From an uncultured Solirubrobacteraceae bacterium (GTDB lineage: Bacteria; Actinomycetota; Thermoleophilia; Solirubrobacterales; Solirubrobacteraceae): a DNA stretch of 64,000 bases. Shown here piece by piece: positions 6,257 to 48,444 of the stretch. The stretch spans positions 83,397-147,396 of the forward strand of contig CAWIRW010000018.1 of NCBI GenBank assembly GCA_963838655.1, written 5' to 3'. The notes under the pieces are model-generated. The model saw only the letters and a list, made by a program, of their open reading frames with translations, did no database searches and had not been told where the DNA came from. A program made the position numbers and the translations under genes. Numbering within the stretch: position 1 is the first letter of the stretch; every line of letters begins with the position of its first letter.

Positions 6257-6717
6257 TGAGGCGAACCGGCTCGCTCGAACGCCTCGCCGACGAGGTCCGC
6301 GCGGGCGGCGGGCTGCTCGCCGGCGCGGTCGCGCCCACCGGGTCGGGCACGCGCGTCGCGGTGTCGGGCGAGCGCACGGCAGCCCACGAGGCGGAGTACG
6401 AGCTGCTCGTCGAGGCGATCCGCGAGGGCTACCTCCTGCACTACGCGGCAGGGCGCGTGATCCGCTCGGACGATCCCGACCTCGCGCTGCTGGCCGGCGA
6501 CCGCCTGTACGCGCTCGGGCTCGCCCGCCTGGCCGAGCTGGGCGACCTCGAGGCGGTGGCCGAGCTCGCCGACGTGATCTCGCTCACCGCCCAGGCGCAC
6601 GCCGAAGGCGACCCCGAGCGCGCGGGCGCCGTGTGGGAAGCGGGCGCGCGCGCCGTTGGCGAGGGTCCGCCCCCGGACCACGAGGCCAGGAAGGCCGCGT
6701 GGCGGGGCGCCCGGTAG
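6253..6717 (+). CDS. hypothetical protein (154 aa), translationally coupled to hemL
   Basis: ATGA overlap with the hemL stop and strong G/C third-position bias. I recognise no family motif. Confidence 0.6.
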   Translation: MMRRTGSLERLADEVRAGGGLLAGAVAPTGSGTRVAVSGERTAAHEAEYELLVEAIREGYLLHYAAGRVIRSDDPDLALLAGDRLYALGLARLAELGDLEAVAELADVISLTAQAHAEGDPERAGAVWEAGARAVGEGPPPDHEARKAAWRGAR

Positions 6718-6864
6718 GCCGGGCGACCCCCCGCCTGCAGCCTCCGGGTCGATAATCTTCGCCTCGTCCGTGCCCCAGCCACGTCGCACACCGAAGTCCA
6801 AGTACACGGCGGACCGGCTGATCCCGGGTCGTTCGAGGGAGAGACCGTCACGCGCCGGCGCCTG

Positions 6865-7452
6865 ATGGGGCTCGCGGTCCAGGCGGGCGGCGGGATCGCC
6901 GTCGCCGCCTTCACCCTCCCCGCGCTCGGCTTCGCGGTCGGCTCGGCGGTCTTCGAGCGCCCACCGGCTACCTGGGAGGCCGTCGGGGCGCCTGACGAGT
7001 TTCCCGACGACACGTACATCCCCAAGGTCATTACGACGACACAGGGCATCGGCGAAGTCGGCAAGACGACGGTCTACCTGCGCGCCTACAACTCCGACAT
7101 CGACGGAGAGAAGGACCCGGACATCCCGGGCGGCGGCGACTTCATCGCGCTGTCGACACGCTGCATGCACCTCGGCTGCCCCGTCCGTTTCGTCGAGGCC
7201 TCGGCGCGCTTCATCTGCCCGTGCCACGGCGGCGTCTACGACTTCACGGGCAGCGTCTCCGGCGGCCCGCCGGTGCGCCCGCTCGACCGCTTCTACACGC
7301 GCGTGCGCAACGACATCGTCGAGGTCGGGCCGCGCTACTCGGTCAACTCGGAGTTCACCCGCTTCCCGAGCTACCGCGACCCCGCGCAGCCGCTCGACGG
7401 CATCGGCCAGTACGTCTACCCCGGGCGCTTCTCGACGCCCAAGCTGGACTAG
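6865..7452 (+). CDS. qcrA: Rieske 2Fe-2S subunit of menaquinol-cytochrome c reductase (N-terminus probably longer)
   Basis: CMHLGCP...CPCHGG Rieske boxes. A twin-arginine motif TRRRL is encoded in frame immediately upstream of the listed ATG, so the true start lies upstream (see findings). Confidence 0.85.
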   Translation: MGLAVQAGGGIAVAAFTLPALGFAVGSAVFERPPATWEAVGAPDEFPDDTYIPKVITTTQGIGEVGKTTVYLRAYNSDIDGEKDPDIPGGGDFIALSTRCMHLGCPVRFVEASARFICPCHGGVYDFTGSVSGGPPVRPLDRFYTRVRNDIVEVGPRYSVNSEFTRFPSYRDPAQPLDGIGQYVYPGRFSTPKLD

Positions 7453-13164: not shown

Positions 13165-13237
13165 GCCCTTGTAGCTCAACTGGCAGAGCAGCGGACTCTT
13201 AATCCGAAGGTTCCAGGTTCGATTCCTGGCGGGGGCA
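13165..13237 (+). tRNA. tRNA-Lys (anticodon CTT)
   Basis: Cloverleaf read by eye. Acceptor GCCCTTG/CGGGGGC with two G-U pairs, D stem GCTC/GAGC, anticodon loop CTCTTAA, T arm CCAGG-TTCGATT-CCTGG. CCA is not encoded. Confidence 0.9.
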
Positions 13238-13296: not shown

Positions 13297-14766
13297 CTAC
13301 TTCTTGCGGATCTCGTAGATCGTGCCGAGCGAGGTCGAGACGGCGTAGAGCGTGCCGGCAGGGCTCTCGCGCACGTCGGCGGTGACGCCGAAGCCCGTGC
13401 CGAAGAGCAGCGACTCGCTCTCGGTCAGGTCGTACTTGCGGATGTTGTCGGCGACGCGGTCGCGGAGGCGCCGGTCGTCCGGGTCGATCTCCTTTCGGTT
13501 GCGGTCGATCGGCACCCGGAAGAGGTTGTTGCCGCGGACGTTCGCGGAGCCGACGAACAGGTCGCCGCGGTACTTCTTGCCGAGCTCGCGCTGGGAGAGG
13601 AAGTCGATGCCGCCCGGGGCGAACTCGTACTTCCAGGCCAGCTCGGGGTCGCTGAAGCGCGAGCCGGGGAGCCGGAACAGGCGCTTGGCGGCCTCGCGCG
13701 GCGTCGTGGCGATGTTCTCCGGTCCCCAGCGCACCTGCTGCAGGCCGTAGTAGCTCGCCGCCGCCGGATCGCCGGTCGGGCCGCGGTTGTTCTCGATCTC
13801 CCGGAACTGGGCGACGCGGCTCAGCGGGCCCATCACCTGCACCCAGCCGGAGTTGAAGCCCGGCTTGACGCGGTTGATCTCGCTGAAGCTGTCGTCGCCG
13901 TTCTCCTGCTCCCAGAGGTCGCCCGAGAACGGGTCGAAGGCCATGCCGAACGAGTTGCGGATGCCGTAGGCGTAGAGCTTCTTGAGGCTCGCGCCGACCT
14001 GGCCGCCGCGATCGGCGCCCTCTTCGTAGAACGGGTTGTCCTTGGGCGCGCTGCCGTCGGGGTTGAGCCGCAGGATCACGCCCGTCAGATGCTCGAAGTC
14101 CGGGTCCGGGCCGCCGAACTGGTCGTCGCCGATCGAGCCGTCGTTCGTCGGCGGGAACGGGTAGACGAACGGGCCGTCGATCAGGTTCTGCATCTGGCCG
14201 CGACGGCCGGTGTCGCCGACGATCAGATACACCTTGCCGTCCGGGCCGACGCGCACCACGCCGCCGTTGTGGTTGCCGCGGGCGACGCCGTTGGACGCAT
14301 CGTTCTGGAACGAGCGCATCCGCACCAGCGTCTTGTCGAACGTCAGCGTCGAGCCATCCCACTTGAAGCGGTCGAGCCGGTTGCCCAGCACCGGCACCGC
14401 CATGAGGTCGTTGTTGTCGGCGGGCAGCGTCGTCTCGCTCCAGTAGAGGTAGACGAACCCGTTGTGGCGGAAGAACTTGTCGAGCGCGATGCCGAGCAGG
14501 CCGCGCTCGGACGCCGAGTTGACGGTCAGATCGAGGACGACCGTCGGCGCACCGCCGTCGCGCACCCGCTTGACCTGGCCGCTGGCCTTCTCGAGCACGA
14601 GGAAGTCGTCGTCGCCGATCCACTCCATCTGCACCGGCTGGCTGAGGCCTGTCGTGATGGTGCCGACCTCGAGGTTCGGATCTGCGACTGATGGCGTCTG
14701 CGCTGCCGCCTGCGCGGTGAAGACCAACGTGGCGGCCACGACTGCGAGACCGAGTACTGCTCGCAT
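13297..14766 (-). CDS. secreted PQQ-dependent sugar (glucose/sorbosone) dehydrogenase-like beta-propeller protein
   Basis: ERGLLGIALD, GNHNGGVVRVGPDGKVYLIVGD, ILRLNPDGSAPKDNPF, YAYGIRNSFGMAFDP. ATG 14766 is preceded by GGGAGGAGG and followed by a signal peptide. Confidence 0.75.
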   Translation of the reverse strand: MRAVLGLAVVAATLVFTAQAAAQTPSVADPNLEVGTITTGLSQPVQMEWIGDDDFLVLEKASGQVKRVRDGGAPTVVLDLTVNSASERGLLGIALDKFFRHNGFVYLYWSETTLPADNNDLMAVPVLGNRLDRFKWDGSTLTFDKTLVRMRSFQNDASNGVARGNHNGGVVRVGPDGKVYLIVGDTGRRGQMQNLIDGPFVYPFPPTNDGSIGDDQFGGPDPDFEHLTGVILRLNPDGSAPKDNPFYEEGADRGGQVGASLKKLYAYGIRNSFGMAFDPFSGDLWEQENGDDSFSEINRVKPGFNSGWVQVMGPLSRVAQFREIENNRGPTGDPAAASYYGLQQVRWGPENIATTPREAAKRLFRLPGSRFSDPELAWKYEFAPGGIDFLSQRELGKKYRGDLFVGSANVRGNNLFRVPIDRNRKEIDPDDRRLRDRVADNIRKYDLTESESLLFGTGFGVTADVRESPAGTLYAVSTSLGTIYEIRKK

Positions 14767-16412: not shown

Positions 16413-16418
16413 GGCGGA

Positions 16419-16448
16419 ACTATATATACCGATATAGGTATATGTCAA
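16419..16448 (-). promoter_or_regulatory. near-consensus promoter for leaderless arsR with a palindromic operator in the spacer
   Basis: The minus strand reads TTGACA, 18 nt, TATAGT, 6 nt, ATG. The spacer contains the inverted repeat ATATACC-N6-GGTATAT (16424-16443). This is the only strongly AT-rich island in the region. Confidence 0.6.
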
Positions 16449-16479
16449 GAGACGTGCTCTGATCGGTAGCCTGCGGCGC

Positions 16480-25170: not shown

Positions 25171-25514
25171 GACGAACGTCAACTGCGGCTGGGTAGGGAG
25201 TGAGGGAGCCAGCCGCCGCGCGTGGTCAAGCCGGGGTTTCGTGTATTTCGGCGTGTCTGGTCGCCCGGATCCACCTTTGTGCTCTAGACGCGCAGCAAGG
25301 TGTATCTCGATGAAGCGTCGGACCCGAGAACCCAATCCCGCCTTGACGGGGAGTTTCGTGTCAATCGATGCGGACTGATCACCGATCGCCACCTTCGTCT
25401 CTAGACGAGGAACAACGTGGATTTCGGCGTTCGCGCACACGCCGAAGAACGAAACTCCCGCCCGACGGCCGCCGGCTCCCCGACCTCCCTACCCAGCCGC
25501 CGTTGACGTTCGCC
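25171..25514. repeat. 344-bp intergenic element with 30-bp terminal inverted repeats (copy A of an unclassified family)
   Basis: 25171-25200 GACGAACGTCAACTGCGGCTGGGTAGGGAG matches the reverse complement of 25485-25514 at 28/30. The interior holds an imperfect 66-nt direct repeat and several perfect hairpins. A second copy lies at 47811-48128. Confidence 0.75.
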
Positions 25515-41527: not shown

Positions 41528-41601
<74 letters not shown>

Positions 41602-45711: not shown

Positions 45712-46772
45712 TGGCCGCTCCGCTGCTGGAGGTCGAGGACCTCCGGGTGCACTTCGAGACCGAGGACGGGCTGGTGAAGGCCGTCGACGGGATCTCCTAC
45801 ACGGTCGACCGCGGCGAGACGCTCGGGATCGTCGGCGAGTCGGGGTCCGGGAAGTCGGTCTCCTCGCTCACGGTCATGGGCCTCACCCGCGCGCGCAACG
45901 CGAGGATCTCGGGCACCGTGCGCTTCGACGGGCGCGACCTGCTCGGCGCCTCCGACGAGGACCTGCGGAGCATCCGCGGCGACGAGATCGCGATGATCTT
46001 CCAGGACCCGCTGTCGTCGCTGCACCCGTTCTACAAGGTCGGCGACCAGATCGTGGAGGCGATCCACGCGCACAAGGACGTCTCCAAGGCGCAGGCCTTC
46101 GACCGCGCGGTCGAGATGCTCGGCCTGGTCGGCATTCCGGAGCCGCGGCGGCGCGCGGACTCCTACCCGCACGAGTTCTCCGGCGGCATGCGCCAGCGCG
46201 CGATGATCGCCATGGCGCTCGCCAACGACCCGAAGCTGCTGATCGCCGACGAGCCGACCACGGCGCTCGACGTCACCGTGCAGGCCCAGATCCTCGAGCT
46301 GATCGAGCGGCTGCAGAGCGAGTTCGACACCGCCGTCGTCGTCATCACGCACGACCTCGGCGTGGTCGCCGAGGTCGCCGACAAGATCTCCGTCATGTAC
46401 GCGGGGCGGATCGTCGAGAAGGGCAACGTCGACACGATCTTCAACGCGCCCGAGCACCCGTACACGTGGGGGCTGCTGAGCTCGATCCCGCGCATGGACG
46501 CCCCGCGCGGGGAGGAGCTCGTGCCGATCCCCGGCCGCCCGCCGTCGCTCATCCACCTGCCCGGCGGCTGCTCGTTCCATCCGCGCTGCCCGTACGTGCG
46601 CGACGCCCACCGGCGGGTCGAGCCGCCGCTCGAGCCGGTCGAGGGCGATCCGGCGCATGAGGTCGCGTGCCTGCTCACGTCGTCCACCCGGCGCAAGCTG
46701 TGGGCCGAGCTCGAGGCCGGCGTCAAGCCCGACGAGGCGCGCCGCGACGTGATCGAGGAGGGCGCGGCATGA
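45711..46772 (+). CDS. peptide/nickel ABC transporter ATP-binding protein (DppD/OppD type)
   Basis: [16 protein letters not shown] and [11 protein letters not shown] motifs, plus a C-terminal oligopeptide-type extension with a Cys cluster. TGATG overlap with the permease gene. Confidence 0.9.
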
Positions 46773-47797
46773 CCACGGGCGAGCCGCTGCTGGAGATCCG
46801 CGACCTGGTCAAGCACTTCCCGATCCGCCAGGGGTTGCTCCAGCGCCAGGTCGGCGCGGTGCGTGCCGTCGACGGCGTGTCGCTCGACGTGCTGCGCGGC
46901 GAGACGCTGGGGATCGTCGGCGAGTCGGGCTGCGGCAAGTCGACCACCGCGCGGCTGCTCCTGCGCCTGATGGACCCGACGAGCGGCTCGGTCAAGCTCG
47001 ACGGCGAGGAGATCGCCACCGTCAAGGGGCCGCGGCTGAAGGAGCTGCGCCGCGGCATGCAGATGATCTTCCAGGACCCGTACTCGTCGCTGAACCCGCG
47101 CAAGACGGTCGGCACGATCATCTCCGAGCCGTTCGCCATCCACGGGCTGGCCACCGGCGAGGGTGAGCGCAAGCGCACGGTGCAGGACCTGATGGACCGC
47201 GTGGGGCTGAACCCCGAGCACTACAACCGCTACCCGCACGAGTTCTCGGGCGGCCAGCGGCAGCGCATCGGCGTCGCGCGTGCCCTCGCCTTGAAGCCGA
47301 AGGTGATCGTGGCCGACGAGCCGGTGTCCGCGCTCGACGTCTCGATCCAGGCGCAGATCCTCAACCTGCTGCGCGAGCTCCAGCGCGAGATGGGGATCAC
47401 GCTCATCTTCATCGCGCACGACCTGTCGGTGGTCCGCCACATGTGCGATCGGATCGCGGTCATGTACCTCGGCAAGGTCGTCGAGCTGGCCACCAACGAG
47501 CAGCTCTACGCCCACCCGCGGATGCCGTACACGGGCGCGCTGATGTCGGCCGTCCCCGTGCCGCAGCCGCGCCTGGCGGCGGCCAAGAAGCGCCAGATCC
47601 TCGCCGGCGACGTCCCCTCGCCCGCGAACCCGCCGCCGGCCTGCCGCTTCCACACGCGGTGCTGGAAGGCGGAGGAGATCTGCCGCCACGAGGACCCGCC
47701 GCTCGAGGCCAAGGAGGGCGGCAACATCGCCGCCTGCCATTTCCCGCTGACGGACGCGGAAGTGCTCGAGCGCGTGCCTACCGCGAAGACCGCTTAG
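46769..47797 (+). CDS. peptide/nickel ABC transporter ATP-binding protein (DppF/OppF type)
   Basis: [17 protein letters not shown] and [11 protein letters not shown] motifs, C-terminal [12 protein letters not shown] overlap with the preceding gene. Confidence 0.9.
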
Positions 47798-47810
47798 CCG
47801 TTCGTTCCTC

Positions 47811-48128
47811 GGCGAACGTCAACGTCAACGCAACGCGCTGGGTAGGGGAGGGTGAGGGTGCCGGCCGGTGTGCGGAAACCGGACAACCCGTCGCGCGGGC
47901 GGGCGGTTGGCCGGTTGCACCGCCCGCGTCCAGGAAACGGACACGCCAGGATCTCGCGGGCGCGATTGCCGGTTGGTGTACACAAGTGGCCAACCGGGCC
48001 CGTCGAACGGGCCTCGTGTCCACTTGTGCACCACTATCGCGCCTAAGTGGCCAACCACCGCGCGATCGGGGGACCATTGTCCCCTTTCGCACCCCCACTC
48101 TCCCTACCCAGCGCAGTTGACATTCGTC
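47811..48128. repeat. 318-bp intergenic element, copy B of the terminal-inverted-repeat family (inverted relative to copy A)
   Basis: Arms are 47811-47850 and 48098-48128. The reverse complement of the right arm, GACGAATGTCAACTGCGCTGGGTAGGGAGAG, matches copy A's left arm with 1 substitution and 1 gap. The element lies between convergent stops at 47797 and 48139. Confidence 0.75.
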
Positions 48129-48138
48129 GGGGCCAGCA

Positions 48139-48444
48139 CTACCGCCGCAAAGCGAGCCGCGCCAGGCGGTCGTCCCACTCGGCGCCCACGGCGGCCATCC
48201 ACTCCATCGCGTCCACCATCGGGGCGGGAGTGAGCGTGTAGCGCGTCTCCCGCCCCTGGCGGGTCGACTCGACAAGGCCGGCGCTGGAGAGCGCGACGAG
48301 GTGCTTGGCGACGGCCTGGCGGGTGATCGGGAGCTCTCCCGCGAGATGTGATGCGGTCAGGCCGGGCCGCTCGGCGAGCGAGAGCATGACCTCGCGGCGC
48401 GTGGGGTCGGCCAGCGCCCCGAAGACCTCGTTCAGGCCGGGCAC
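48139..48444 (-). CDS. ArsR/SmtB family transcriptional regulator
   Basis: FGALADPTRREVMLSLAERPGLTASHLAGELPITRQAVAKHLVALSSAGLV. GTG 48444 overlaps the upstream SRPBCC gene by 13 nt. Confidence 0.8.
   Translation of the reverse strand: MPGLNEVFGALADPTRREVMLSLAERPGLTASHLAGELPITRQAVAKHLVALSSAGLVESTRQGRETRYTLTPAPMVDAMEWMAAVGAEWDDRLARLALRR

Follow-up and report, generated by a model that had tools for sequence, protein, structure and literature searches.

A dispersed family of mosaic palindromic repeats at gene 3′ ends in Solirubrobacteraceae

The stretch of 64,000 nucleotides analyzed here (the window), from a contig of an uncultured Solirubrobacteraceae bacterium, contains two repeat copies, A and B. 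Copy B, the subject of this analysis, is 318 nt long (window positions 47811-48128) and lies between the converging ends of an ABC-transporter ATPase gene and an ArsR-family regulator gene. Our analysis suggests that B is a dispersed, non-coding and non-autonomous mosaic palindromic repeat, resembling miniature inverted-repeat transposable elements (MITEs) and the REPIN and bacterial interspersed mosaic element (BIME) repeats built from repetitive extragenic palindromic (REP) units; it is likely moved in trans, and probably serves as a two-way hairpin barrier. The family to which it belongs is gained at gene 3′ ends without target-site duplication.

B is bounded by two inverted arms of approximately 30-40 nt, with a 13-nt core of perfect complementarity, 254 nt apart (Table 1). 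Re-reading the window bore out every sequence and coordinate that the initial annotation had quoted for B, together with its grouping of A and B in one inverted-repeat family with conserved arms and differing interiors; the reverse complement of the right arm of B departs from the left arm of A by 1 substitution and 1 gap, as had been stated. Two arm blocks, CTCCCTACCCAGCGC and GTTGACATTCGTC, occur in the window (≤2 mismatches) nowhere but in the four arms of A and B, with chance expectations of 0.31 and 0.76, respectively, and four arm-block matches were reached in 0 of 100 shuffles. Fortuitous inverted repeats abound in high-GC genomes, and it could be proposed that the arms are alike by chance, or that generic palindromic terminators happen to enclose unrelated sequence. 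The motif counts, well above those of shuffles, refute chance similarity, and near-identical arms in 33 other genomes speak against it; capture of unrelated sequence conflicts with the conserved interior subfamilies and with the copying of arms and interior as one. This explanation is almost certainly wrong. A genome search for further members, named at the outset as the test that could refute the family, found many. A weak arm-profile match elsewhere in the window (13818-13856, E=0.21) lies within coding sequence and is not a family member.

The wider family was catalogued by scanning species-representative contigs, one genome each, with the pattern GTCAAC-N(2-14)-GCTGGGTAGGG, which matched more than 109 stretches. 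Among the matches listed, true arms are present in approximately 89 loci from 33 metagenome-assembled genomes (MAGs) labelled Solirubrobacteraceae or Solirubrobacterales, the exceptions in label being one Actinomycetota and one short contig binned as Asanoa. One MAG, MFD05567.bin.1.238, holds 11 or more copies. Arms in these loci follow the pattern GGCGAACGTCAAC-N3-4-GCTGGGTAGGGAG... and mostly form inverted pairs 60-430 nt apart. Twenty matches in other phyla are chance, with long spacers and no AACGTCAAC context. An nhmmer profile of the arm found 195 sites across the collected loci, mostly a plus-strand arm followed by a minus-strand arm. In viral contigs the arm pattern gave 13 matches, mostly with long spacers, and no family member was found among those examined; the only one with a typical 4-nt spacer (L125) had no AACGTCAAC context on reading, and L128 and the rest were left out. 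A blastn search of a plasmid database with B returned no match. On the genomes covered by these scans, the family is lineage-specific and restricted to Solirubrobacteraceae.

The arm consensus reads (CC)GGCGAACGTCAAC-[TG]GCG-GCTGGGTAGGGAG-GCTGGGGAGCC, a terminal inverted repeat of approximately 35-45 nt that comprises an outer block (CC)GGCGAACGTCAAC, a spacer of 3-4 nt, and an inner G-rich block GCTGGGTAGGGAG(GCTGGGGAGCC). Conservation begins some 4-6 nt outside AACGTCAAC. A second arm flavour combines the same outer block with the inner block GCATT[GA]AGGG, and is the partner of many seemingly solitary arms; with both flavours allowed, 63 complete elements of 61-432 nt were recovered. Arms-only members, in which the arms stand back to back, measure 61 (L025), 78 (L057), 80 (L001) and 81 nt (L010). 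Set against this consensus, some features first ascribed to B are better described in other terms. The “11-nt local duplication” of its left arm is indeed extra sequence, best viewed as slippage of a terminal hexamer, AAC-GTCAAC-GTCAAC-GCAAC; the same 6-nt gain or loss occurs in at least eight other members, and the outer block acts as a short hexamer repeat, CG-(AACGTC)n-AAC, of 0.5, 1.5 or 2.5 copies. The motif TGAGGG[AT]GCC[AG]GCCG is shared by A and B as reported; it is not specific interior sequence, simply the inner continuation of the arm consensus. That B is inverted relative to A cannot be established, because the two arms of each element are near-symmetric. Possible orientation cues (GAC or GGC in the outer part, TGCG or GGCG as spacer) take either form freely from arm to arm, and the interiors of A and B belong to different subfamilies and give no convincing alignment. 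The G-rich strand of the arms also has three built-in G-runs (window 47839-47857, and 48067-48110 on the minus strand). In 22 of 132 arms, the two of B among them, the G-runs within 41 nt make up a canonical four-run G-quadruplex motif, as compared to 0.1% of background 41-nt windows.

Clustering of interiors by blastn yielded at least six groups, of 14, 7, 6, 4, 4 and 3 members, that recur across genomes, with B in the largest and A in a group of 6. The interiors thus fall into subfamilies, one of the two outcomes that the initial annotation had foreseen, and are not unrelated captured sequence. They comprise 0 to approximately 5 hairpin modules of the form GGTGYA...stem...A/T-containing loop...stem...TRCACC, whose short loops and linkers frequently hold TATAG, CTAG or ATAT and whose stems covary, as read directly from the sequences; GTCAAC/GTCGAC recurs as inverted pairs within the modules. 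The interior of A consists of two units of approximately 117 nt, built from GGTGTAT...hairpin and stem-TCTAGA-stem modules. In B, homology to a compact 190-nt subfamily (L039, L042, and L130 and L131 from a metagenome scan) covers the left 175 nt and the final ~30 nt of the interior, which marks B as an expanded version of this shorter element. The right end of the 190-nt subfamily is matched in B by GGGGGACCATTGTCCCC with TTTCGCAC. Module 3 of B, which has a stem of ~15 bp and a conserved GGCCA/TGTCC mismatch, has its relatives among the modules of L006, L095 and L075.

Predicted folding of B reaches -184.9 and -186.8 kcal/mol on the two strands (z = -7.7 and -7.3); A likewise folds very strongly on both strands, and values across the family range from -0.44 to -0.80 kcal/mol per nt. 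A sliding scan of minimum free energy (MFE) through the window for more cryptic elements was uninformative, as coding DNA of 72% GC folds equally strongly. The four-sequence alignment of the 190-nt subfamily supports a nested consensus structure with double changes in 5 of 63 pairs. These paired changes are suggestive, in a sample too small to decide the matter. A structured non-coding RNA gene, either a multi-copy small RNA or a large non-coding RNA with the arms as its closing helix, would account for the extreme predicted stability, the compensatory pairs and the conserved non-canonical module positions (GGACA/TGGCC). We consider such a gene very unlikely. At the Rfam gathering score only two tRNA genes were found in the whole window, and nothing matched between 47780 and 48160 at E≤1; a consensus scan of 47600-48350 found 0 sigma-70-like promoters and 0 U-tailed terminator sites, the hairpins having no following T-run. 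Moreover, both strands fold equally, and when sense and antisense MFE were compared in tandem contexts the better strand was unrelated to the direction of the neighboring gene (7 versus 13, no bias). The interior varies from 0 to ~350 nt and in content across members, and the element is absent from close relatives. Integron attC sites were also rejected by inspection of the sequences (core sites unlike RYYYAAC/GTTRRRY, no cassette arrays), as were Xer/dif-type sites, LexA/Cheo boxes and extracytoplasmic function (ECF) promoters.

The history of the B site was assessed through close homologues of the ABC ATPase (85-93% identical, from the same soil MAG collections), by which seven orthologous loci were retrieved. 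The same opp-type operon is present in all seven, and in six of them an annotated ArsR gene is followed by one of AHSA1/Polyketide_cyc2 type; in the other, L110, this stretch is uncalled yet homologous. The element is missing from all seven. Four of them, L110, L111, L114 and L116, have the two genes ending directly against or overlapping one another (...TAG on the ArsR end); in L112 and L115 the genes are separated by unrelated spacers of 66-85 nt with an ordinary hairpin, and in L113 there is an extra gene. Compared with L111, the window has approximately 355 extra nt between ...TAG and CGAGCCGCGC..., made up of B with 13 nt to its left and 24 nt to its right. The ArsR C-terminus reads ..RLARLALRR* in the window versus ..RLARLARRSAQ* in the orthologues, the change falling at the insertion point. 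Since seven orthologous loci lack the element, four of them with abutting or overlapping gene ends, the parsimonious reading is that B is a lineage-specific insertion at the meeting point of the ABC-ATPase and ArsR gene ends. In its present position B begins 13 nt past the TAG stop of the ABC ATPase (which ends at 47797) and finishes 10 nt short of the ArsR stop (CTA on the plus strand, starting at 48139), exactly as first noted. The tetranucleotide CTAG is common around the arms: it lies within 12 nt outside 16 of 125 arms, and within 40 nt of 24 of 125 (L001-L109), where a background of 0.43 per kb leads to about 2 expected in the 40-nt flanks. In most cases it consists of a C and the TAG stop of the neighboring gene, and at the empty orthologues of the B site the two converging stops overlap as CTAG.

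Similar copies also occur within genomes. The six best full-length element matches, 82-88% identical over arms and interior, are each between different loci of the same MAG, and on these alignments what is copied within genomes is the element as a whole, with its arms and interior. L130 and L131, similar copies by eye, lie on different contigs of one metagenome sample. No target-site duplication above shuffle expectation was found at offsets 0-9 and k=3-8 in 34 well-defined pairs, and the junction between filled and empty B sites allows at most a possible 2-nt AG duplication. These observations bear on the classical MITE, a deletion derivative of an insertion sequence (IS) with a DDE transposase and the same ~40-bp ends, moved by that IS through cut-and-paste or copy-paste. 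The long conserved terminal inverted repeats, small size, lack of coding capacity, and numerous copies per genome with insertion polymorphism are all in keeping with a MITE, and several interior subfamilies on one set of ends are common in MITEs. We nevertheless find it improbable, given the missing target-site duplications and the failure to find any full-length IS with the same ends among 89 loci or in ~0.9 Mb of Solirubrobacteraceae DNA; arms-only members and tandem or nested arms, as in L035, are also atypical of DDE MITEs. The initial annotation had likened the outward hexamers of B to boxes in some IS ends, an analogy that is weak for want of target-site duplications and of any transposase between or beside the arms, save for unrelated ISs that have landed inside elements.

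We return to a mobile repeat of another kind, the reading favored above. The absence of target-site duplications, together with the hairpin architecture, fits a non-DDE route (REPIN-like, HUH or other) better than a classical DDE MITE, and a putative trans-acting enzyme, encoded in single or low copy, would recognize the arms and move the element. Interiors may grow at the apex, where hairpin modules would be duplicated or inserted, as suggested by the graded series from arms-only members to five modules, the tandem arms of L035, and the back-to-back elements of L075 and L084. A more specific version, rather doubtful, is that the family is an actinobacterial counterpart of the REPIN and REP-associated tyrosine transposase (RAYT) replicator. 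Here, an undiscovered single-copy enzyme, HUH or other, would recognize the hairpin-folded pair of ~40-nt arms, and the arms would stay constant across species (as in L019 and L028, discussed below); elements would preferentially enter the apex or ends of hairpins already present where genes converge, and would be co-opted as two-way barriers to transcription.

L035 itself (6443-7231) has 4 tandem left arms with a period of ~58-65 nt and 4 tandem right arms with one of ~41-72 nt, around a single interior of about 5 modules; the linkers on the two sides are not complementary, and nested insertions or independent tandem duplications are both possible. Other elements have been interrupted by foreign DNA. 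In L041 (6396-7795, Solirubrobacteraceae MAG CAVSRU010000005.1) a copy-A-type element carries an IS of ~1.05 kb, with an ORF (open reading frame) of 367 aa that by eye has the look of an integrase-type (IS481-like) transposase, and which sits exactly at the CTAG of an interior hairpin loop (…GTCTAGA|TGTAGGACCC…). In L059 (253-700, the contig binned as Asanoa sp.), the disruption of the element comes directly behind a CATAG hairpin loop, and the intruding DNA encodes on its minus strand a protein end resembling, by eye, the C-termini of IS5/IS1182-type transposases (…IATSHNLLKLYR…). The loops of family elements seem to be IS targets, of which L059 would be a second case.

The genomic setting of the family resembles that of B. 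With the coding strand of the flanks inferred from GC3 periodicity, both flanks could be classified for 51 elements, 28 of which are convergent, 20 tandem and 3 divergent. The location between convergent gene ends, first described for B, is thus the preferred context of the family, and stop codons are frequently found 0-20 nt from the arm tips. In L082 (6150-6250), an ABC-ATPase paralogue lying upstream seems to continue into the element, stopping at the TAG within GGGTAGGG of the arm. As this ORF apparently ends there, it seems that arms can supply the last codons and stop of a gene. At such positions, transcripts from either gene would fold into a hairpin cluster of approximately -180 kcal/mol, which might block or insulate convergent transcription and protect mRNA 3′ ends.

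An alternative to transposition is host maintenance, by which selection keeps the arms and hairpins as bidirectional terminators, insulators or protein-binding sites, and spread occurs mainly by duplication, recombination and gene conversion. The strong bias to gene 3′ ends, convergent pairs above all, is well explained in this manner, as are the symmetric folding of both strands without strand preference and the compensated stems across modules. The same is true of an orthologous locus in two species (L019 3040-3460 and L028 7020-7350), with flanks 86% and 76% identical and the element in both, where an arm of 41 nt is identical despite the diverged flanks. However, the B site is empty in seven close relatives, with no spacer in four of these, and the element is evidently dispensable there; the closest copies, at unrelated loci of one genome, need a mechanism of dispersal; and no canonical terminator tail is present. 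We regard host maintenance as quite improbable.

A role in transcription initiation has little to recommend it. The initial annotation had described outward-facing TTGACA/TTGACG hexamers near both termini and compared them to -35 boxes. The hexamers are present 6-7 nt from both tips and conserved in the family, and could in principle act as -35 boxes that make hybrid promoters into the flanks, rendering the element a mobile promoter carrier. The promoter role did not hold up: the region has no sigma-70-like site, TANNNT occurs 16-18 nt downstream of outward-reading arms in 0 of 112 cases, and outward transcripts from elements at gene 3′ ends would be antisense. The TTGACR hexamer is instead part of the conserved terminal block AACGTCAAC, and GTCAAC/GTCGAC is found in interior modules too. 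We hold a mobile promoter to be highly improbable.

Several observations weigh against the mobile, barrier-forming repeat that we favor. The best copies within one genome are only 82-88% identical, with no evidence of very recent activity. No candidate transposase emerged as a recurrent neighbor when the well-supported ORFs of 109 loci were clustered, and tblastn with approximate RAYT and IS608 TnpA sequences gave no significant Y1/RAYT-like match in the same ~0.9 Mb. In no case do paired arms flank their own transposase, and the sole long element, L041, holds the unrelated IS481-like insertion. The orthologous L019/L028 locus shows ~41 identical nt spanning the left arm and the bases next to it, and a single module in common between the interiors; its right arms differ in flavour, one being of the GGGTAGGG type and the other of the GCATTGAGGG type. 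This pattern hints at host-level constraint, gene conversion or re-insertion into an occupied site, as opposed to simple neutral decay. At the B site, the extra DNA is ~37 nt longer than the arm-bounded unit, which is not what a clean insertion from one terminal inverted repeat to the other, into a spacer of zero length, predicts. Finally, no U-tract stands behind the hairpins of B, and a terminator or insulator role is one that we purely infer.

The family shares features with several known repeat systems. REPINs and REP-BIMEs are REP doublets that form hairpins and are mobilized by RAYTs, which are Y1 HUH transposases, mainly in Proteobacteria. Like these, the present family is high-copy, non-coding and extragenic, with inverted units around a variable spacer that give a long hairpin, and without target-site duplication; it likewise sits downstream of unidirectional or convergent genes, forms clusters and mosaics, and persists vertically with occasional copying. 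REPs are stem-loops (imperfect palindromes) of 20-40 nt, whereas an arm of this family is no palindrome: on their own, arms fold overall no better than shuffles (z from +1.4 to -1.95). The arms are also longer (35-45 nt), the interiors may hold several structured modules, the host is actinobacterial, and no RAYT was found, none being known that is flanked by arms of this family. The arms do contain GTAG and CGTC, tetranucleotides which one REP survey describes as tags of REP superfamilies (PMC3733652), although these are located inside the arm and not at a stem-loop end. In term searches, that survey and a second (PMC6006769) mentioned neither Actinobacteria nor the Solirubrobacteraceae clade.

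Another parallel is found in the terminal inverted repeat families associated with TIRYTs and TIRtrons, which are described as long, non-REP and moderately abundant, occurring as singles, dimers and clusters (PMC3733652; subclass 2.1 of TnpA_REP in PMC6006769). TIRYT-linked repeats are proposed there to be moved by a Y1 transposase, and many carry a G-rich motif, GGGGWSAS (PMC3733652). The arms of our family carry the loosely similar GGGGAGCC/GGGAGAGT, an inexact match, and no TIRYT gene flanked by family arms was seen.

Modular repeats offer a further comparison. In the BOX elements of Streptococcus pneumoniae, terminal boxA and boxC modules pair and internal boxB modules vary in number, while copies of the enterobacterial ERIC/IRU elements are enlarged by insertions at internal sites. 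The present family is comparable in its modular build, stable secondary structure and intergenic location, and is a mosaic of the BIME/BOX type, with 0 to ~5 recurrent modules between constant end modules. It differs in phylum and has no sequence relationship to BOX or ERIC; its terminal modules are true inverted repeats of one sequence, and its internal modules are hairpins of several sequence subfamilies. Bacterial MITEs such as Correia/NEMIS of Neisseria, RUP and Nezha have target-site duplications (TA for Correia) and can be traced to parent IS families. The ends of Correia contain functional promoter parts; Correia elements also lie beside genes, their transcripts fold, and they are reported to affect termination or mRNA stability. 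A size of 100-400 bp, terminal inverted repeats, non-coding sequence and dispersed copies are common to these MITEs and our family, which differs in having no target-site duplication, no parent IS found and no promoter parts at its ends. In the strict sense, the family belongs neither to REPs, because its arm is not a palindrome, nor to DDE MITEs, because it has no target-site duplication and no parent IS was seen. No account of repeats in Solirubrobacter, Conexibacter or Thermoleophilia emerged from literature text searches. The family is previously undescribed, yet it falls within the familiar class of small palindromic repeats and is not a new kind of system.

Table 1. Features of copy B, its flanks and copy A (window coordinates)
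Feature	Sequence	Position	Strand	Remarks
Copy A		25171-25514		Same arms; interior of another subfamily; adjoins end of GT20 (trehalose-6-P synthase-like) gene
Oligopeptide/dipeptide ABC transporter ATP-binding protein gene		46769-47797	+	Pfam ABC_tran and oligo_HPY; ends at left edge of insertion
Segment between ABC stop and left arm (13 nt)	CCGTTCGTTCCTC	47798-47810		Missing at empty orthologous sites; outside family consensus
B left arm, L-type	GGCGAACGTCAAC GTCAACGCAAC GCGCTGGGTAGGGGAG	47811-47850	+	E=2.8e-5 with the nhmmer arm profile; GGCGAACGTCAAC is the terminal block, GTCAACGCAAC the insert from hexamer slippage, GCTGGGTAGGGGAG the inner block
Inner extension of left arm	GGTGAGGGTGCCGGCCGG	47851-47868	+	Pairs with 48085-48097; within family arm consensus
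Interior hairpin module 1	GGTGTGCGGAAACCGGACAA...GGTTGGCCGGTTGCACC	47867-47921		Homologue of first module of 190-nt subfamily (L039, L042, L130, L131)
Small hairpins	GTCCAGGAAACGGAC and CTCGCGGGCGCGA	47928-47965		Conserved in 190-nt subfamily
Interior hairpin module 3 (58 nt)	GGTGTACACAAGTGGCCAACC...GTGTCCACTTGTGCACC	47975-48032		Reads GGTGTACACAAGTGGCC...CCACTTGTGCACC
Two more hairpins	ATCGCGCC...GGCGCGAT and GGGGGACCATTGTCCCC	48036-48084		
B right arm, L-type	CTCTCCCTACCCAGCGCAGTTGACATTCGTC; minus-strand reading GACGAATGTCAACTGCGCTGGGTAGGGAGAG	48098-48128	-	Arm profile E=7.2e-9
Segment right of right arm (~24 nt)	GGGGCCAGCACTACCGCCGCAAAG	48129-48152		Missing at empty orthologous sites; gives last codons and stop of ArsR gene
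ArsR-family regulator gene, converging on B		48139-48444	-	Pfam HTH_20/HTH_5

B has no codon periodicity, with GC by codon position of 0.64/0.69/0.70 versus 0.44/0.98/0.69 in the ABC gene. Three mechanically called ORFs, of 64, 77 and 121 aa, nonetheless run through it (window 47852-48233), and the 64- and 77-aa ORFs, which were scanned, have no Pfam match. The two tRNA genes of the window are located at 13165-13237 (+) and 41528-41601 (-). At 16415-16450, an A+T-rich palindromic stretch, CTATATATACCGATATAGGTATATG, stands out in this genome of 72% GC; it lies in an apparently non-coding gap, has the appearance of an operator or promoter region and bears no relation to the repeat family.

Small palindromic repeats such as REPs and REPINs, BIMEs, BOX elements and MITEs shape transcription termination, mRNA stability and genome rearrangement, and no mobile DNA better exemplifies vertical persistence over millions of years than REPINs. 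To our knowledge, nearly all well-studied cases come from Proteobacteria and Firmicutes. The family described here is abundant in a soil actinobacterial family dominated by uncultured members, and combines unusually long non-palindromic arms with a graded series from arms-only to multi-module elements and a clean insertion into overlapping convergent gene ends. It thereby offers a tractable system for asking which enzyme moves hairpin elements without target-site duplications outside Proteobacteria, potentially the more interesting question, and whether such elements are recruited as insulators between convergent genes. Given ORFs through B with neither Pfam match nor codon periodicity, such repeats likely mislead ORF callers into spurious calls of 60-120 aa. 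Within Solirubrobacteraceae, these repeats explain long, gene-free and highly structured intergenic stretches.

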